64,000 nucleotides of DNA from Escherichia phage vB_Eco_NR1, in the sequence record LR990704. The stretch is one strand, 5' to 3'. Of this stretch, positions 3,172-60,045 are shown in pieces. Below the pieces are notes generated by a model that saw only the letters and a list, made by a program, of their open reading frames with translations, was not told where the DNA came from and did no database searches. The position numbers and the translations under genes were made by a program. Positions within the stretch are counted from its first letter, which is position 1. Each line of letters begins with the position of its first letter.

Positions 3172-4759
<1,588 letters not shown>

Positions 4760-4786
4760 AATAAAATGGGCCTTGCGGCCCACTCC

Positions 4787-5965
4787 TTAAAAGTATTTTT
4801 TAAAACTCATCATAACTTTATCATCAACATCATTATCAATCTGTGCAACAAGGTAAGATGACAGTTCTACTTCTTGTGGCGCGGATTGAACATTATCAGA
4901 ATTAAGATATTCACGAATCCAAGGATATGGATGTTTAACCGGAGCATCGGTAATCGGGCATGGAAGACCACACTGTTTCATACGAGATACAGTTAAGTAA
5001 TCAATAAAGCTCCACATGCTATTTGTATTTAATCCAGGAACATCGCCATCTTTAAATAAATGAACTGCCCAATCTTTTTCTTGGCGGTTAACTTCCATGA
5101 AAATATCAACTGCTTCTTGTTCACACTCTTGAGCAATTTTAACCCATTGATCGCCATCAGTACCAGATTGAAGTTGACGAATAATATATTGGGTGCCTTT
5201 AAGGTGAAGCTGTTCATCGCGTGCAATGAACTTCATAATCTTGGCATTACCTTCCATGATTTCCATGTTCTTATGGAAGTTAAAGGTACATGCGAAAGAT
5301 ACATAAAAACGAATAGCTTCCAATGCGTTAATTACATGCAAACAGAGGTAAAGAGATTTCATTAGCTCACGCTTCCAATATGTCTCATGCTCAATAGCAT
5401 CTTCAATAACGTCTTCGTCTGCATTAATTTCTTTTTGGTATTCGATATCAGCTTTAGCGTTTTCCCAATAACGAGTTTTAATCAGAACATCATCATAATA
5501 ACGTCCAATGGATTCAGCACGTTTCATAATAGCTTCATCTAATACAATTTCATCAAATACCTTCGATGGATCAGTATAAAGATTTCGCATGATATGTGTA
5601 TATGAACGGCTGTGAATAGTTTCACTAAAAGTCCATGTAGCAACCCATGTATCAAGGCTTGGGTCTGAAATTAATGACATAAGTACAGCAGATGGCGCAC
5701 GACCCTGAATGCTATCCAAAAGTGATTGATACTTCAGGTTATTAGTAAAAATATTTTGCTGATACTGAGGAAGCTTGTTAAATTGTGCAGCATCCATCAT
5801 TAAGTTTACTTCTTCAGGACGCCAGAAAAATGACAATTGCTTTTCGGTTAAATCTTCAAAAACTTTATGGCGTTGAATATCATAACGCGCAATACCAAGA
5901 CCTGAACCGAAGAACATAGGTTCTTTTAAAACATCAACTGGATTTGTATTAAAAACTGTAGACAT
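4787..5965 (-). CDS. nrdB: ribonucleotide reductase class Ia small (beta) subunit
   Basis: 392 aa continuous ORF; di-iron R2 fold motifs; no intron or I-TevIII-like ORF interrupts it. Confidence 0.95.
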   Translation of the reverse strand: MSTVFNTNPVDVLKEPMFFGSGLGIARYDIQRHKVFEDLTEKQLSFFWRPEEVNLMMDAAQFNKLPQYQQNIFTNNLKYQSLLDSIQGRAPSAVLMSLISDPSLDTWVATWTFSETIHSRSYTHIMRNLYTDPSKVFDEIVLDEAIMKRAESIGRYYDDVLIKTRYWENAKADIEYQKEINADEDVIEDAIEHETYWKRELMKSLYLCLHVINALEAIRFYVSFACTFNFHKNMEIMEGNAKIMKFIARDEQLHLKGTQYIIRQLQSGTDGDQWVKIAQECEQEAVDIFMEVNRQEKDWAVHLFKDGDVPGLNTNSMWSFIDYLTVSRMKQCGLPCPITDAPVKHPYPWIREYLNSDNVQSAPQEVELSSYLVAQIDNDVDDKVMMSFKKYF

Positions 5966-5999: not shown

Positions 6000-6791
6000 T
6001 CACATATTGTGTATAAGCACTTCGGTCTGAAATGATGCACCCTTCTTTTGCTTCCTATACATGGTTTCAAAATATTCAATTTTGAAATTATTAGAAAGGG
6101 CCCAATCTTTTAAAATATAATTATTAATATCGTCTGATAGATTATTAGTGATAATAAATTTAGACTTCGATTGTTTAATTTTGTCTAATAATTCTAATTC
6201 ATCCTTTTCTTCCCAGCCTGAATATTTAAATTTAGTAGAAAGATACGGCGGGTCAATGAATAAATTTTTGTTTTCAAAATCCAAATCTCTGAATGATTTA
6301 TTACTAAATGTAAATCGGTGCTGTCTATTTTTAAATTCAGAAAATTTATCCTGCTGAGACTTATTAAAAGAAGTTCTGGAATACTTGGCTCTATTGGCGA
6401 AAGCCGCGTTATAATTCCCATTACTAGAAAATCGGATTAACGAACTGAATGAAAATAAATGTAGAACATAAAGATATAATCCGTTTTTGGTTTTATCGTA
6501 TTCTTTTGACAGATTATAAAAAGGTGCTGAATCTTTGTCATTCAAATTAAAATCTTCAATAATTTTAACTATATCATTAATTGAAGATGATTTCATCTTT
6601 TTATACATGTCTATAAGAGGAGTATTAATATCATTACATATAACATCTCTCTGACAATTCATAGAAAATCCAAGACCACCACAAAAAGCATCCAAAACAG
6701 GCTTATCGTCAAAGCGGTTTGAAAATTGTCTAATAAATGGCATATACTTATGTTTTGCACCTGGATATGTTATGGCAGGTAGGTCTTTCAT
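6000..6791 (-). CDS. DNA N6-adenine methyltransferase, Dam family (divergent)
   Basis: 263 aa; motif I DAFCGGLGF and catalytic motif IV FIDPPYL in alpha-class order; N-terminal YPGAK and segment YVLHLFSFSSLIRFS resemble T4 Dam; very AT-rich coding sequence. Confidence 0.8.
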   Translation of the reverse strand: MKDLPAITYPGAKHKYMPFIRQFSNRFDDKPVLDAFCGGLGFSMNCQRDVICNDINTPLIDMYKKMKSSSINDIVKIIEDFNLNDKDSAPFYNLSKEYDKTKNGLYLYVLHLFSFSSLIRFSSNGNYNAAFANRAKYSRTSFNKSQQDKFSEFKNRQHRFTFSNKSFRDLDFENKNLFIDPPYLSTKFKYSGWEEKDELELLDKIKQSKSKFIITNNLSDDINNYILKDWALSNNFKIEYFETMYRKQKKGASFQTEVLIHNM

Positions 6792-6834: not shown

Positions 6835-9099
6835 TCATAATTTACAGGATGAACAATCTTCAGCTTTTGGAGTTTCTATTTCATAATCATCAGTACCAGA
6901 ACCATCACGGGTATTATGATAATAGAAATTTTTTCCGCCAAAATACCAAAAGTACAAAAGGTCATCAATCATTACAGACATTGGAACCTTTCCTTTTGGA
7001 AAAATCTGCGGGTCATAATATGTATTTGCTGAAGCTGATTGACATACCCATTTAAGCATAATAGCTACCTGCGTAAGATAAGGTTTATTACCTTTCTTAG
7101 CTAATTTCCATGTATAATCATAGAGGTCTATGTTATGCTCAATATTGGGCACGACTTGATTAAAGGAGCCCTCTTTTGATTCTTTAACAGAGACTGGTCC
7201 ACGTGGAGGCTCGATACCGTTTGTACTGTTAGAAACTTGGGAAGATGACTCACATGGCATAAGTGCTGATAATGTGCTATTACGGATGCCAAAGAGCTTA
7301 AGGTCTTCCCGCAGCGACGACCAGTCACAAACGTATTTTGGAGCTGCGATTTGGTCAATCTTTTTATTGTACCAGTCGATAGGTAATTCGCCTCGAGACC
7401 AACGAGTGTCTGAATAATATTCGCAAGGTCCTTTTTCTTTGGCGAGCTTAATGGATGCTTTAATGAGTCCATACTGTAATCTCTCAAATAGTTCATGTGT
7501 TAAATCGTTAGCATCTTCATAAGAAGCAAAGTTACTTGCCAGCCAAGCTGCATAGTTAGTAACACCTACACCGAGGTTACGACGCTTTTTAGCTTTTTCT
7601 GCTTCAGGAACTGGATATCCTTGGTAATCCAAAAGATTATCAAGAGCACGAACTTGGACTTCTGCCAATTCATTAATTTTATCTTGGTCTTGCCAGTCAA
7701 AATTATCCAGTACGAATGCAGATAACGTACACAATCCAATTTCAGCATCAGGACTATTCACATCATTTGTTGGAATAGCAATTTCACAACACAAGTTACT
7801 CTGACGAATAGGTGCCTTTTCACGAATAAACGGAGTATAGTTATTCGTATTATCAATGAACTGTACATAAATCCTTGCTGTTCCTGAACGTTCAGTCATG
7901 AGCAATTCAAATAGTTCACGGGCTTTAATACGCTTTTTACGAATATTAGGGTCTTTTTCTGCTGCTTCGTATAATTCACGGAAACGGTCTTGGTCTTTAA
8001 AATAAGAATAATAAAGCTCTCCACCCATTTCATGTGGACTGAACAAAGTAATGTAATCGTTCTTTCCAAATCGTTCCATCATCAAATCATTCAGCTGAAC
8101 GCCATAATCCATATGACGAATGCGGTTTTCTTCTACGCCTTTGTTATTTTTCAAAACGAGAAGATTTTCAACTTCCAAATGCCAAATAGGATAATAAGCA
8201 GTAGCAGCGCCGCCACGAATTCCACCCTGTGAACATGATTTAACTGCAGTCTGAAAATGTTTCCAAAAAGGAATAACACCAGTATGACGTACTTCACCCA
8301 TGCCAATCTTAGAACCTTCAGCACGAATCATACCAACATTAATACCAATTCCAGCGCGTTTAGAGATATATTCAACAATTGAAGCGGAAGCCTTATTGAT
8401 AGACTTCAATGAATCACCTGCCTCAATAACAACACATGAACTAAACTGTCGAGTTGGAGTACGGCAACCAGCCATAATAGGAGTTGGCAATGAAATCTGT
8501 CGAGTAGATACTGCTTCATAAAAACGGATAACATGTTTTAATCTATCAACAGGTTCATCTTGATGCAGTGCCATTCCAATAGTCATAAATGCAAACTGCG
8601 GAGTTTCATAAATTTGACCAGTGGTTTTATCTTTAACTAGATATTTTTCTTTTAATTGCATCGCACCGGAATAAGTAAATTCCATATCCCGCTCGTGCTT
8701 AATTTTTGATTCTAAAAATGTAATTTCTTCTGCTGAATATTTTGACAATAATTCAGGGTCATATTTACCTGCATTTACACAGTAAGAAATATGGTCAATA
8801 AATGAACGCGGTTCATACTGCCCGTAAACATGCTTACGAAGAGCAAACATTAAACAGCGTGCAGCTACATATTGATAATCAGGCTCTTCAACCGAAATAG
8901 AATTCGCAGCAGCCTTAATTACAATAGTTTGAATGTCATCAGTGGTCATTCCATCACGGAGATATGATTTAATATTTTCATATAATTCATAAGGATCTAC
9001 AGATGTTCCTTCAGCTGCCCAAGATAAAACTTTAATAATTTTTTGTGGGTCAAAGCTCTGAGAAACACCACTACTTTTGATAACATTAATTAATTGCAT
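6835..9099 (-). CDS. nrdA: ribonucleotide reductase class Ia large (alpha) subunit
   Basis: 754 aa (T4 NrdA 754 aa); ATP-cone N-terminus, catalytic NxCxE (SNLCCEI) and C-terminal CSSCKL tail. Confidence 0.97.
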   Translation of the reverse strand: MQLINVIKSSGVSQSFDPQKIIKVLSWAAEGTSVDPYELYENIKSYLRDGMTTDDIQTIVIKAAANSISVEEPDYQYVAARCLMFALRKHVYGQYEPRSFIDHISYCVNAGKYDPELLSKYSAEEITFLESKIKHERDMEFTYSGAMQLKEKYLVKDKTTGQIYETPQFAFMTIGMALHQDEPVDRLKHVIRFYEAVSTRQISLPTPIMAGCRTPTRQFSSCVVIEAGDSLKSINKASASIVEYISKRAGIGINVGMIRAEGSKIGMGEVRHTGVIPFWKHFQTAVKSCSQGGIRGGAATAYYPIWHLEVENLLVLKNNKGVEENRIRHMDYGVQLNDLMMERFGKNDYITLFSPHEMGGELYYSYFKDQDRFRELYEAAEKDPNIRKKRIKARELFELLMTERSGTARIYVQFIDNTNNYTPFIREKAPIRQSNLCCEIAIPTNDVNSPDAEIGLCTLSAFVLDNFDWQDQDKINELAEVQVRALDNLLDYQGYPVPEAEKAKKRRNLGVGVTNYAAWLASNFASYEDANDLTHELFERLQYGLIKASIKLAKEKGPCEYYSDTRWSRGELPIDWYNKKIDQIAAPKYVCDWSSLREDLKLFGIRNSTLSALMPCESSSQVSNSTNGIEPPRGPVSVKESKEGSFNQVVPNIEHNIDLYDYTWKLAKKGNKPYLTQVAIMLKWVCQSASANTYYDPQIFPKGKVPMSVMIDDLLYFWYFGGKNFYYHNTRDGSGTDDYEIETPKAEDCSSCKL

Positions 9100-51197: not shown

Positions 51198-51716
51198 TTA
51201 ATAGCCTCGGTCTTGACGAGCGAAATTTTCAGCATTTTTCAGATAATAAAGTTTAAATATTTCTTCAGCTGACATTCCAAGAGCAATAAATTTATTCATG
51301 AAAAAGTGAAATTGGTCAATCAGTTCAAATTTAATTTCAAGCTGATCTTCAGGAGATAAGTCTTGAATTTTCTTGGATTGCATTTCAGAATAACGTTTCT
51401 TCCAAGGTTTCCATACGGCAGAAGCTTCTTTTTCACCATTACTCATACCACCAAGAGAAGTATATAGTTCGCGAGTTTCATCTGCGATATAATCGTCTTG
51501 GTTTCGCAACCAAGCAAGAACTTCTCCTGCAGTTTCAAGTGAATCAGGATGACGATTTGTTTCTGGTTTATCATTAGCCAAACGAATCTGTAAATGCCGC
51601 TGCATATCAAGCATAACCTGCAGTGGGTCAATATTGTGCATAATATTCTCAGCATATGCACGATTTGCTTTATCAACACCTTCGATCAAATGAGCACATT
51701 CATTAAAGTAAGCCAT
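51198..51716 (-). CDS. 56: dCTP/dCDP pyrophosphatase gp56 (MazG-like)
   Basis: ORF track 51198..51809 trimmed to MAYFNECAHLIEG (172 aa; T4 gp56 171 aa); upstream part overlaps a MotA-box promoter. Confidence 0.85.
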   Translation of the reverse strand: MAYFNECAHLIEGVDKANRAYAENIMHNIDPLQVMLDMQRHLQIRLANDKPETNRHPDSLETAGEVLAWLRNQDDYIADETRELYTSLGGMSNGEKEASAVWKPWKKRYSEMQSKKIQDLSPEDQLEIKFELIDQFHFFMNKFIALGMSAEEIFKLYYLKNAENFARQDRGY

Positions 51717-51787: not shown

Positions 51788-51988
51788 ATGGTACAAAAAT
51801 TAATGGCACTTGTTAATGCCATAAAAGGTAATAAAAAACGTATAGCTTTTACTATTTCTGCTATGGTAGGAATTTTACTCTGGAACTTTATTCTATCACC
51901 TGTTGCAATTGCGCATGGTATTAATATTCCAGTAGTTACTCTTGATACATTTGTAGATTTAGCATTTGCTTTAGTTGGGTTGATTTAA
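51788..51988 (+). CDS. putative small membrane protein (66 aa) on opposite strand between 56 and 61
   Basis: AAGGAGG SD 4 nt before ATG; two predicted TM segments; ORF fits the 56-61 intergenic gap exactly (4-nt overlap with gene 61 end). Confidence 0.4.
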   Translation: MVQKLMALVNAIKGNKKRIAFTISAMVGILLWNFILSPVAIAHGINIPVVTLDTFVDLAFALVGLI

Positions 51989-56464: not shown

Positions 56465-56827
56465 TTAAAAGAATTTAAATTTTTTCTTTGACCTTTTATT
56501 AAATGCATCTTGCAGTTGCATTGTAATACATTTTTCTACATGAGGAGCTAACTCAGCTTTTCTTTCTTGGTCAAGAACAGCAAAGTCCATTACGACTTTT
56601 CCATCAACCCAATCTAATTTTGTCACATACACAATGTGTGTAGAACCATCTTCTAGTTTAATGACAATCTCCTGGATAACATTTTCCATAGCGGATTTAA
56701 TTATCTTAAGAGACTCATTAAAAAGACGTTCTTTTCTTTCTTCTTCCCCCTCCGAAGAGGGGGATTCATCGATAATTTCTAGATCTAAGTCTAAATCATC
56801 TTTATTCATTAAATTCTTCCATATCAC
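56465..56827 (-). CDS. hypothetical acidic protein (120 aa) at the position of T4 gene 40
   Basis: ORF track; lies between 41 and uvsX; identity by position only. Confidence 0.55.
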   Translation of the reverse strand: MIWKNLMNKDDLDLDLEIIDESPSSEGEEERKERLFNESLKIIKSAMENVIQEIVIKLEDGSTHIVYVTKLDWVDGKVVMDFAVLDQERKAELAPHVEKCITMQLQDAFNKRSKKKFKFF

Positions 56828-57983
56828 TTAACTGTTCGAGGTCAGTTTCTAAATCAGCAGCTGATTTACTTTTACTTTCTGGAGATTTAAATTTTTCAAC
56901 CTTTGAGTTAATCAATTCATCAACTTCAGCTTCAACAATTTCATTACTATCAATAGCACCTAATTGATAAGCACGTTTAATAGCATCTCGGAATGGTTGA
57001 TGCTTAAATAAAGGACCCCAGAATGTAGTGCAGTTAGTATCTTTTGCACGCCAAGATTTTTCTTCGCGAATCATCTCGCCGGTTTCTTCGTCAAGAAATT
57101 CACGAGCATACCAACCATTCTTAGGTTTTACTACAAATCCTAATTCTAGAGCCATATCTAACAATCCAGAATAAGGATCGATACCACCGTCAAATTTAAC
57201 ATCAATAAAGAATTTACTTTTTTCTTTAACGGTACGAGATTTTTCTACATTTAGAACAAATTGATACCCCTGAAGATCAGAACCATCTTTAATCTGACGC
57301 TTACCGATAATGAATACAGTATCAGCCGAATACATTACGCCTGTACCACCTGTCATCACGGTTTTACTAAACATTTCAATTGTTTCAATTGTATGGTTAA
57401 CCGCAACACATGGAATATTTTTAATGCTAAAATAAGGAGTAACAATACGGAATAATGACTTCAGTGATTTAGCACGAGTCATATCTGCCACAGATTTTTC
57501 ATTCAAGGCATCTTCCGTTTCTTTCTTAGAAGCCATATTACCGATTGAGTCGATGAATACAATAACCTTTTCACCACGCTCAATAGCTTCAAGCTGGTTC
57601 ACCATATCAATTTTCAGTTGTTCAACTGACTGAATCGGCGTATGAATTACTCGTTCCGGGTCAACTCCCATGGATCGCAAATAAGCTGGAGTAATACCAA
57701 ATTCGCTATCATAGAATAGACAAACCGCGTCAGGATATTTGTTCAAATATGCCGCAACCATAGTCAAAGACATATTTGATTTAAAGTGTTTAGAAGGCCC
57801 TGCGAAAATAGTTAAACCAGACTGCATACCGCCATCAATCGCACCAGAAATAGCAATATTAAGCATTGGAATTTTTGTACGAATTACATCCTTTTCATTA
57901 AAGAATTTAGATGTAGTCAGTTCAGCAGTCATTTTAGAAGTGGAAGCTTTAATCAAACGGGATTTTAAATCTGCAATAGACAT
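56802..57983 (-). CDS. uvsX: UvsX recombinase (RecA-like)
   Basis: 393 aa; RecA fold Walker A GPSKHFKS; matches recalled T4 UvsX. Confidence 0.95.
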   Translation of the reverse strand: MSIADLKSRLIKASTSKMTAELTTSKFFNEKDVIRTKIPMLNIAISGAIDGGMQSGLTIFAGPSKHFKSNMSLTMVAAYLNKYPDAVCLFYDSEFGITPAYLRSMGVDPERVIHTPIQSVEQLKIDMVNQLEAIERGEKVIVFIDSIGNMASKKETEDALNEKSVADMTRAKSLKSLFRIVTPYFSIKNIPCVAVNHTIETIEMFSKTVMTGGTGVMYSADTVFIIGKRQIKDGSDLQGYQFVLNVEKSRTVKEKSKFFIDVKFDGGIDPYSGLLDMALELGFVVKPKNGWYAREFLDEETGEMIREEKSWRAKDTNCTTFWGPLFKHQPFRDAIKRAYQLGAIDSNEIVEAEVDELINSKVEKFKSPESKSKSAADLETDLEQLSDMEEFNE

Positions 57984-58060
57984 TCATTTTTTCCATAGGC
58001 ATCATTATATTTTCCTCACTGGTTAAAGATAGAGTAATTATAACACAATAAATTTAGGCA

Positions 58061-58909
58061 TTAATCAACTGCTATTGGATGAATAGCATTAAACTTATGA
58101 AATGCTTCTGATTTTTCTTTGCGCGAAACACACATGCGAAGAACCTTTAATGGCTCGTCTTCTTCACCCAACGATTTTCGTTTTTCAATATTAGAAGTTT
58201 TCCAACGAGCTTGCTCTGGAAACTCTCTATTGATTTGCTCAAGCGCTCTATTATGTTTAGAATTACTGCGAATTGAACTACACCCACCAGGAGCTTGTGC
58301 TTTTCCAGATACAACCAGATATTTGAACAAGGCCAAATGCGGATAACCTTGATTAATTAAATTGAGAAATGCATACATATCTTCGCACAAATCAATTTTT
58401 CCATACCCAATTTGTTCTGTTGTAAGTTTTCCAAGGTCATACCATGTATTCGTGAATCCATATGAATTTTCACGATAATTACCCCAAGATGAAGTAATTT
58501 TAAAAATTGGTAGACGAGCATGGCCATGATAATACCCGCAATCCATGGCATCTTCGACGTATTGAATCAATTCATAGAACTGTTCACGGGTTAATTGATT
58601 GACTTTATCTACACAACGACGGTCATCTCTTTTTCGCATTGAACTCATACGAATAGTAGTATCATCGTCAATCATCCAGATTCGTTGACCTGCATACATA
58701 TCAGTAATTGCTTTACGAGTACCAGCAATTCCATTTACATCGTCAGGAATAGTTATAATTTTAGCTCTAGACCCATAGGCATCATAATAAGCTTTTTCTT
58801 CATGTTCACGCACTACAATATGGGGTTCATAATTAGTCGGAAACATATCAAGGGCAGAAACTGCCCCGACACGCTGATAACTTGGAATTACGAATTGAAT
58901 CATTTCCAC
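58061..58909 (-). CDS. putative HMC-DNA glucosyltransferase, GT-A fold (T2/T6 beta-alpha-gt-like)
   Basis: 282 aa; N-terminal VIPSYQR and DDD (DxD) motif typical of GT-A glycosyltransferases; sits where T4 encodes GT-B beta-gt. Confidence 0.6.
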   Translation of the reverse strand: MEMIQFVIPSYQRVGAVSALDMFPTNYEPHIVVREHEEKAYYDAYGSRAKIITIPDDVNGIAGTRKAITDMYAGQRIWMIDDDTTIRMSSMRKRDDRRCVDKVNQLTREQFYELIQYVEDAMDCGYYHGHARLPIFKITSSWGNYRENSYGFTNTWYDLGKLTTEQIGYGKIDLCEDMYAFLNLINQGYPHLALFKYLVVSGKAQAPGGCSSIRSNSKHNRALEQINREFPEQARWKTSNIEKRKSLGEEDEPLKVLRMCVSRKEKSEAFHKFNAIHPIAVD

Positions 58910-59640
58910 TCACCTTTATAGTCTTTTTTCACAATATGAGTTTCGCCAGTATTCCACCAATGATCAACCAAGTAAAAATGACGAGAATATACATGAAGAC
59001 TTCCAACATTCCATATAATAGAACCTGCTTTATACTGACGAGTTGAATCGCCTGCATTCAAATCAGATACTAATTTATCTAATACGTATTTTTGCCATGC
59101 ATAATCATTACGGAATCCGAAGACCACGTCATTTGAGCGCATGCTTACTACTGCATTGACTTTCTTATCACGAATCAGGTACTGTACTGTATTAGTACAC
59201 ATGAAATCTGACATACCATCTTTATTGTAGTCAAATTGCATGGATGGACGAGTATAAATCATGATACCACGCCGAGAATCAGGATTTTGACCAAGTTCAG
59301 CTAAACACATATCATACTGGGCATAGTTATCTTCTGACCAAATAGCCCAACCATAATTCGAGTTAATTTCGCCTTTAGAAGATGCTACCTGCTGCCAAAT
59401 CTTTGGTGTTTCACCTGGAATATCTTTAACAAACAAGCTCTTAGATTTATACCATTCAAGTTCGCGCTGAATGTATTCATCATTAAGAGCACCAAAAATA
59501 AACGGTTCATCTGCTACAAATGATGCGCCAATAATTTCAATAGTTTTAACACCAGTTTTATCAACTACGAAATCTTTTTCTTTTAATGCAAGCCCCAAAT
59601 GAAGACGGATTTCTTCAACTGTCATAGAGTCACTAATCAT
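58900..59640 (-). CDS. 42: dCMP hydroxymethylase gp42
   Basis: 246 aa as in T4 gp42; thymidylate-synthase-like fold. Confidence 0.95.
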   Translation of the reverse strand: MISDSMTVEEIRLHLGLALKEKDFVVDKTGVKTIEIIGASFVADEPFIFGALNDEYIQRELEWYKSKSLFVKDIPGETPKIWQQVASSKGEINSNYGWAIWSEDNYAQYDMCLAELGQNPDSRRGIMIYTRPSMQFDYNKDGMSDFMCTNTVQYLIRDKKVNAVVSMRSNDVVFGFRNDYAWQKYVLDKLVSDLNAGDSTRQYKAGSIIWNVGSLHVYSRHFYLVDHWWNTGETHIVKKDYKGEWK

Positions 59641-59647
59641 TTAAACC

Positions 59648-59797
59648 TCAATTGATACATTCATATTTAACTTGTAACAGTAATAAACTCCAACCTAAAA
59701 TAATAGTTGGAATCATAAGAGGAACCGTTACACTATAGTATATACTTATTATAATCATCAAGATTAAAAGCAACACTGCTATAATTTTGCTTTTCAT
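59648..59797 (-). CDS. small hydrophobic protein (49 aa), imm.1-like
   Basis: manual translation MKSKIIAVLLLILMIIISIYYSVTVPLMIPTIILGWSLLLLQVKYECIN; ATG overlaps imm stop (ATGA). Confidence 0.5.
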   Translation of the reverse strand: MKSKIIAVLLLILMIIISIYYSVTVPLMIPTIILGWSLLLLQVKYECIN

Positions 59798-60045
59798 TCC
59801 TTCTCTCTGATGATAATTACCTGATTTGGTTGTGCAGACTTTTTAGTTTCACCCGCAATTGACCAAATAAATGTAATAAACCAACCAATAATTGACCAGT
59901 TAAACAGTAAAGATGTGAAAAAGATTCCTACTGTCGATTTTGACCCACGCATCAAAGCAATAAACCATGGAAGCATGTATATAATAATAGCCAACACACC
60001 TGAAACTAAAACCATAAAAATTGAACCTGCTACTAAAGTTTCCAT
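59794..60045 (-). CDS. imm: immunity protein Imm (superinfection exclusion, membrane)
   Basis: 83 aa, two TM segments; matches recalled T4 Imm. Confidence 0.88.
   Translation of the reverse strand: METLVAGSIFMVLVSGVLAIIIYMLPWFIALMRGSKSTVGIFFTSLLFNWSIIGWFITFIWSIAGETKKSAQPNQVIIIREKE

Follow-up and report, generated by a model that had tools for sequence, protein, structure and literature searches.

Which DNA glycosyltransferase does Escherichia phage vB_Eco_NR1 (sequence record LR990704) encode between gene 42 and uvsX, the interval that carries beta-gt in phage T4, and what would it mean for the sugars on the phage DNA? We addressed this question in a window of 64,000 nucleotides, which is the whole stretch of DNA analysed. 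A preliminary description of the same DNA had proposed that a protein with GT-A hallmarks stands here in place of the T4 beta-glucosyltransferase, and that it is of the T2/T6 type. [quoted passage not shown] We take this enzyme to be EC 2.4.1.28. The present analysis shows what the gene is, where it lies, which class of fold it encodes and how its motifs are conserved; the chemistry and the defence phenotypes are taken from published work on proteins that are identical to it or nearly so. The catalytic residues, the sugar ratio in exact terms and the occurrence of alpha-gt in this genome are inferred.

The gene, its start and its neighbours

The window as a whole is Tequatrovirus DNA, approximately 97% identical to phages KMB22 and JK38 (an identical record was absent from the collection searched), and the 2.2 kb around ba-gt are 98-99% identical to many Tequatrovirus genomes. 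The gene had been described as lying between uvsX and gene 42, and both flanks are readily recognized by their identity to T4 (Table 1). The order gene 42, ba-gt, uvsX is common to JK38, T2, T6 and QOTSP, and the window also contains the hmC-synthesis gene. In a tblastn search, T4 beta-gt, alpha-gt and segA had no match anywhere in the 64-kb window, so a T4-type beta-gt is found neither at this locus nor elsewhere in it. Annotated Tequatrovirus records usually name the ba-gt product beta-glucosyl-HMC-alpha-glucosyltransferase or glucosyl transferase. The former, historical name is misleading, as the enzyme places a beta-1,6 glucose onto alpha-glucosyl-hmC.

Table 1. Positions in the window of ba-gt, its motifs and the adjoining features
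Feature	Position	Strand	Basis
uvsX, downstream flank of the ba-gt locus	56802..57983	-	393-aa ORF; 90.5% identical to T4 UvsX over 391 aa
Last 25-nt region of ba-gt including the stop codon, relic in T4	58059..58083	-	24/25 identical to T4 NC_000866 24262-24238, E 3.8e-7
ba-gt (g-gt, TAGT), predicted 280-aa glucosyl-DNA beta-glucosyltransferase	58061..58903	-	ORF, ATGA overlap with gene 42, PHROG 842, PF20691, identity to JK38/QOTSP
E174-D175, candidate catalytic base of an inverting GT2-like enzyme	58379..58384	-	Conservation and model (putative role)
D79-D80-D81, DXD-type motif right after strand 74-77	58661..58669	-	Family alignment, model, 9jma alignment
VIPSYQR, residues 5-11, first beta-strand and loop of the nucleotide-sugar-binding domain	58871..58891	-	Family alignment, model, 9jma alignment
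gene 42, dCMP hydroxymethylase, makes the hmC to which sugars attach	58900..59640	-	246-aa ORF; 97% identical to T4 gp42 over 245 aa
GTG GAA, two extra codons of the mechanical ORF call	58904..58909	-	Start annotation in relatives

The mechanical ORF list gives an intact, GTG-initiated minus-strand ORF of 282 aa (58061..58909), the stop codon of which occupies 58061-58063. Translation almost certainly begins at the ATG at 58903, giving a protein of 280 aa with the N-terminus MIQFVIPSYQR. In the raw sequence of the start region (GGTGAGTGGAAATGATT), this ATG shares the tetranucleotide ATGA with the TGA stop codon of gene 42, and a GGTGAG motif lies a few bases upstream at a suitable distance. 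The equivalent ATG is the annotated start in all fetched relatives except T6 record MH550421: JK38, QOTSP and both T2 records carry a CDS of 843 nt, and T6 record AP018814 carries one of 840 nt (279 aa). The CDS of MH550421 (786 nt) starts later because of an amber codon. The overlap, the spacing of the GGTGAG motif and the start annotated in most relatives all favour the ATG, and the GTG at 58909 was consequently dropped as a start codon; the codons GTG GAA are probably not translated within the ba-gt protein. The 282-aa ORF of the preliminary description thus exists, with 280 aa as the likelier length of its product.

The ATGA overlap makes co-transcription and translational coupling of ba-gt with gene 42 probable. 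A sigma-70 promoter scan of positions 57900-59900 returned 12 candidates against 10 expected, which is chance level, and the single terminator-like hairpin inside the ba-gt ORF (58867-58851) is also within chance (1 found against 0.7 expected). Directly 3' of the ba-gt stop codon, on the minus strand at 58037-58060, the sequence reads TGCCTA, 12 nt, TATAAT. This is presumably a counterpart of the T4 middle (MotA-dependent) promoters and would then drive uvsX; it was missed by the sigma-70 scan because it has no -35 element.

Several other features of the window were recorded (all on the minus strand). A strongly hydrophobic ORF of 49 aa without a Pfam match lies between gene 42 and imm (59648-59797); it is also intact in T4, with one residue changed, and this gap is unannotated in the T4 and T6 reference records. 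The gp56 dCTPase (51201-51716) is 69% identical to that of T4, compared with 99.4% for its neighbour gp61 and 99.7% for gp43, both almost unchanged; the region is a local mosaic patch, in which segF is absent. The slot between genes 56 and 61 that would hold a T4-position dam is empty in the window (51809-51985). A D12-class N6-adenine DNA methyltransferase of 263 aa (6000-6791; PF02086, 5.5e-24), about 34% identical to T4 Dam, is encoded between nrdA (6835-9099) and nrdB (4787-5965). Just downstream of nrdB, an ORF of 144 aa containing a GIY-YIG nuclease domain (4349-4783; Pfam 5.4e-6) is probably a Seg-type homing endonuclease.

Family membership, motifs and fold

The ba-gt protein matches phrog_842, 'beta-glucosyl-HMC-alpha-glucosyltransferase', over its full length (2.4e-89) and the Pfam family PF20691 (TAGT, TET-associated glycosyltransferase) with 38.4 bits against a gathering cutoff of 27.5, the match spanning protein residues 6-209 and profile positions 3-205 of 205. 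JK38 and QOTSP encode exactly the same protein (100% identity). The T2 enzyme, represented by two independent records, departs from it at three residues (R11H, N24D, P251S), and the two T6 records do so at 4-5 positions; residue 24 is Asn here and Asp in both T2 and T6. The assignment to the T2/T6 type made in the preliminary description is borne out by these matches; the closest homologues are T2/T6 enzymes that act on DNA, not non-DNA glycosyltransferases. Homologues occur in 688 phage records (tblastn), and gene 42 (thymidylate synthase / dCMP hydroxymethylase) adjoins the homologue in nearly all annotated records among the matches listed. None of the eight nucleotide differences from JK38 and QOTSP changes an amino acid, and third codon positions account for 27 of the 30 that separate ba-gt from its T2 counterpart, which indicates at the sequence level that ba-gt is a real gene under purifying selection.

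Both public T6 records carry apparent lesions in this gene. In MH550421, CAG is changed to TAG at codon 10 (extract 2951-2953; VIPSY-stop-R), and the CDS is annotated from Met20; in AP018814, one GAT is lost from a (GAT)3 run (extract ~2735-2743), which shortens DDD to DD. Both affect GT-A hallmark motifs and could be either stock mutations or sequencing errors. They are odd in that T6 is the textbook phage with 72% gentiobiosyl-hmC.

Fold assignment required a structure model, since sequence searches of the PDB returned chance or weak matches only. With the single protein as query, all matches were at chance level (E above 1). The family profile gave one weak match, to the GT2 beta-1,3-glucosyltransferase 9jma (E 0.22), in which IPSYQR pairs with IPTYNR and DDD with DDD. 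The word-indexed homologue search returned 11 clusters, and the family alignment, a shallow one of 10 sequences in which T2 is absent, was the input for an AlphaFold2 model with a mean pLDDT of 70.5 and a pTM of 0.73. The N-terminal half of the model is confident, and residues 125-151 and 194-211 fall below a pLDDT of 50, leaving the acceptor-binding half poorly defined.

The model contains a single Rossmann-like alpha/beta/alpha nucleotide-sugar-binding domain, as in GT-A enzymes. One strand (residues 3-7) overlaps the start of VIPSYQR (residues 5-11), the fourth strand (74-77) ends just ahead of D79-D80-D81, where a GT-A enzyme has its DXD motif, and a helix (174-184) opens with E174-D175. 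Both of the GT-A hallmarks named in the preliminary description, VIPSYQR and DDD, are present, and the model supports a GT-A fold for the protein. The family alignment shows no variation at I6, P7, S8, Y9, R11, D79-81 or D175 and almost none at E174, and all 40 invariant family residues are present in the protein of this phage. E174 or D175 may serve as the catalytic base. DXD-type motifs such as DDD take part in metal and UDP binding in GT-A enzymes generally, a role that would extend to this protein by analogy. An AlphaFold3 model of the T6 TAGT has also been placed in the GT-A superfamily, where it groups beside GT2 (PMC13216743).

Predicted sugar pattern and its bearing on host defence

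The pathway that we propose begins with gp42, which would make the hm-dCMP that is polymerised into phage DNA. A phage alpha-glucosyltransferase, encoded outside the window, would then put alpha-glucose on 5-hmC. This step is assumed from relatives because alpha-gt has no match in the 64-kb window: JK38, which has the identical ba-gt protein, carries alpha-gt between genes 47 and 55, as does T6, and synteny would place the gene of the present phage roughly 10 kb beyond the right end of the window. The single-domain GT-A enzyme would bind UDP-glucose through its N-terminal Rossmann-like half, with the IPSYQR strand and loop and the DDD motif probably working together with a divalent cation. It would transfer the second glucose with inversion, beta-1,6 onto the alpha-glucose, to form alpha-gentiobiosyl-5-hmC.

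This chemistry has been described in related phages. Neither T2 nor T6 has beta-gt; in both, alpha-glucosyl-hmC receives a beta-1,6 glucose from a second transferase, and the resulting gentiobiosyl-hmC accounts for 5% in T2 and 72% in T6 (PMC6024577; bioRxiv 10.64898/2026.02.25.707755). Durham Tequatroviruses encode an alpha-GT together with a TAGT that is syntenic with T4 beta-GT, and measurements on QOTSP DNA gave about two thirds alpha-gentiobiosyl forms and about one third 5-hm-dC, with alpha-glucosyl forms present in trace amounts (PMC13390438).

Three other readings would give the gene a different role or none. That it is a highly diverged T4-type (GT-B) beta-glucosyltransferase is suggested by the shared chromosomal position only and can be rejected, as there is no detectable similarity (BLASTP E 2.2) and the fold is unrelated; we found no grounds in either sequence or fold for membership of the T4 beta-gt family (PF09198). 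A primary DNA glycosyltransferase, acting directly on 5-hmC or using another sugar, is conceivable since many phages have distantly related TAGTs without alpha- or beta-GT, to whose solitary enzymes this may apply, and the range of acceptors that TAGTs use has been defined only in part (PMC13216743). We nevertheless consider it very improbable here: when the near-identical gene of T6 is deleted, alpha-glucosyl-hmC stays and only the second glucose is lost, as was presumed in one study (PMC11078745) and is supported by a BapA glucose-release assay (bioRxiv 10.64898/2026.02.25.707755); phages with the identical protein have glucose-only modifications that are all alpha-linked to the base (PMC13390438); and JK38 carries alpha-gt as well. 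The T6 records, with their amber at codon 10 and one-codon DDD deletion, suggest that laboratory stocks can do without the gene, provided that the lesions are not sequencing errors, but it is scarcely credible that ba-gt is a similarly inactive remnant in the present phage, where the ORF is intact, the 40 invariant residues are all retained and no difference from JK38 or QOTSP alters the protein.

For a functional enzyme of the T2/T6 type, the remaining question is how much of the DNA it converts. The extent of gentiobiosylation cannot be read from ba-gt alone, as near-identical enzymes give anything from 5% to 72%. An enzyme with T2-like output, converting a few percent of alpha-glucosyl-hmC and leaving DNA that is mostly mono-alpha-glucosylated and fully sensitive to Brig1-type enzymes, would be compatible with the approximately 98% identity between the T2 and T6 proteins, with the intermediate ratios of some Durham Tequatroviruses (EL/BGP/Geo; PMC13390438), and with a ratio set outside ba-gt by expression level, timing or alpha-gt. 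We regard this outcome as rather unlikely. QOTSP has the identical protein, and its DNA proved on measurement to be about two thirds gentiobiosyl; the family-invariant Arg11 is kept; and a T4-position dam, which marks the Durham group with intermediate ratios (PMC13390438), is missing from its slot. These three observations lead us to predict a T6-like pattern, by analogy and on the strength of the QOTSP identity rather than of understood determinants: the virion DNA would carry approximately two thirds gentiobiosyl-hmC and one third bare 5-hmC, with little mono-alpha-glucosyl-hmC and no beta-glucosyl-hmC.

Arg11 is replaced by His in both T2 records (extract positions 1507-2349 and 3295-4137) and is kept here, in T6 and in QOTSP. 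As a tentative and somewhat doubtful proposal, this residue could be the switch between T6-like (~70%) and T2-like (~5%) gentiobiosylation. In that case the sequence would reveal the sugar pattern and, with it, the sensitivity to alpha-glucosyl-hmC-specific defences.

By deciding the sugar decoration of the DNA, ba-gt decides which modification-dependent defences act on it, among them Brig1, BapA/Brig3, GmrSD/BrxU and McrBC. Deleting ba-gt from T6 raises the sensitivity of the phage to Brig1 and turns its DNA into a substrate of the deglucosylase BapA, while gentiobiosyl DNA resists Brig1 in vitro and also resists BapA (PMC11078745; bioRxiv 10.64898/2026.02.25.707755). GmrSD/BrxU-type enzymes cut all of these modified forms (PMC13390438; PMC13216743). 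The mature DNA of the present phage would thus be shielded from the alpha-glucosyl-hmC glycosylase Brig1 (as seen in vitro) and from BapA, whereas GmrSD/BrxU-type enzymes, like glycosylases specific for bare 5-hmC, would still be able to act on it. By analogy, the gentiobiosyl pattern and its defence relevance, both anticipated in the preliminary description, are supported by their documentation in phages whose protein is identical or almost identical (PMC13390438; PMC11078745; bioRxiv 10.64898/2026.02.25.707755).

The T2/T6-type ba-gt, its fold, position, product and relevance to defence have all been published already, and the present case adds nothing new to biology, as a phage with a 100% identical protein (QOTSP) has already been chemically analysed. 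For annotation and phage-therapy profiling, it would be useful to record this phage as alpha-gt plus ba-gt and T6-like, with gentiobiosyl-hmC and roughly one third bare 5-hmC.

Origin of the T4 arrangement and comparison with known systems

The preliminary description had ba-gt standing in place of T4 beta-gt. The two genes do share a slot, but the direction of replacement was stated backwards, as ba-gt is common and T4 beta-gt is the exception. T4's pair of alpha-GT and beta-GT is rare, being found in 6 of 753 phage genomes, and alpha-GT with TAGT is common (PMC13216743); at the uvsX-42 locus, T4 is the unusual phage. Its interval holds segA besides beta-gt. Homology between the window and T4 ends at 57971 on the uvsX side and restarts at 58918 on the gene 42 side, and between these points the end of ba-gt has left a 25-nt relic in T4 (Table 1), immediately upstream of the segA start. 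This relic is the only significant match between the ba-gt locus and the T4 beta-gt/segA interval, the other short matches (9-12 nt) being at chance level. In several Tequatroviruses, including ESh36, LH2, PD112, CE1 and Manna, segA lies directly beside ba-gt, and in these phages the homology with T4 stops exactly at the relic. Judging by the relic and these endpoints, T4 beta-gt most likely took the place of an ancestral ba-gt in a forebear that already carried segA. The arrangement in the window, with ba-gt and without segA, is probably the ordinary, ancestral one.

Among known systems, T4 beta-gt (GT-B, PF09198) shares the chromosomal slot and is likewise an inverting UDP-glucose-dependent DNA glucosyltransferase, but it acts on bare 5-hmC to give mono-beta-glucosyl-hmC and is unrelated to ba-gt in sequence and fold. 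GT2-family GT-A enzymes, such as the AvpGT beta-1,3-glucosyltransferase (9jma), TarP, SpsA and the catalytic domain of cellulose synthase, are only about 10-15% identical to the ba-gt protein and use lipid-linked or polysaccharide acceptors, whereas ba-gt would use glucosylated DNA; the poorly modelled C-terminal acceptor half is not comparable. With the Pfam TAGT family (PF20691), of which it is a distant member (38 bits), the ba-gt protein has the GT-A fold in common. It differs in that hmC is supplied here by the thymidylate-synthase-like hydroxymethylase gp42 and not by a TET/JBP dioxygenase, and in that, by analogy with T2 and T6, its acceptor would be a sugar already on the base. The closest counterpart is the ba-gt of T2 and T6, which is the same gene in the same slot between gene 42 and uvsX, equal in length in T2 (280 aa) and different in nothing of substance, the present protein having N24 for the D24 of T2 and T6 and R11 for the His of T2.
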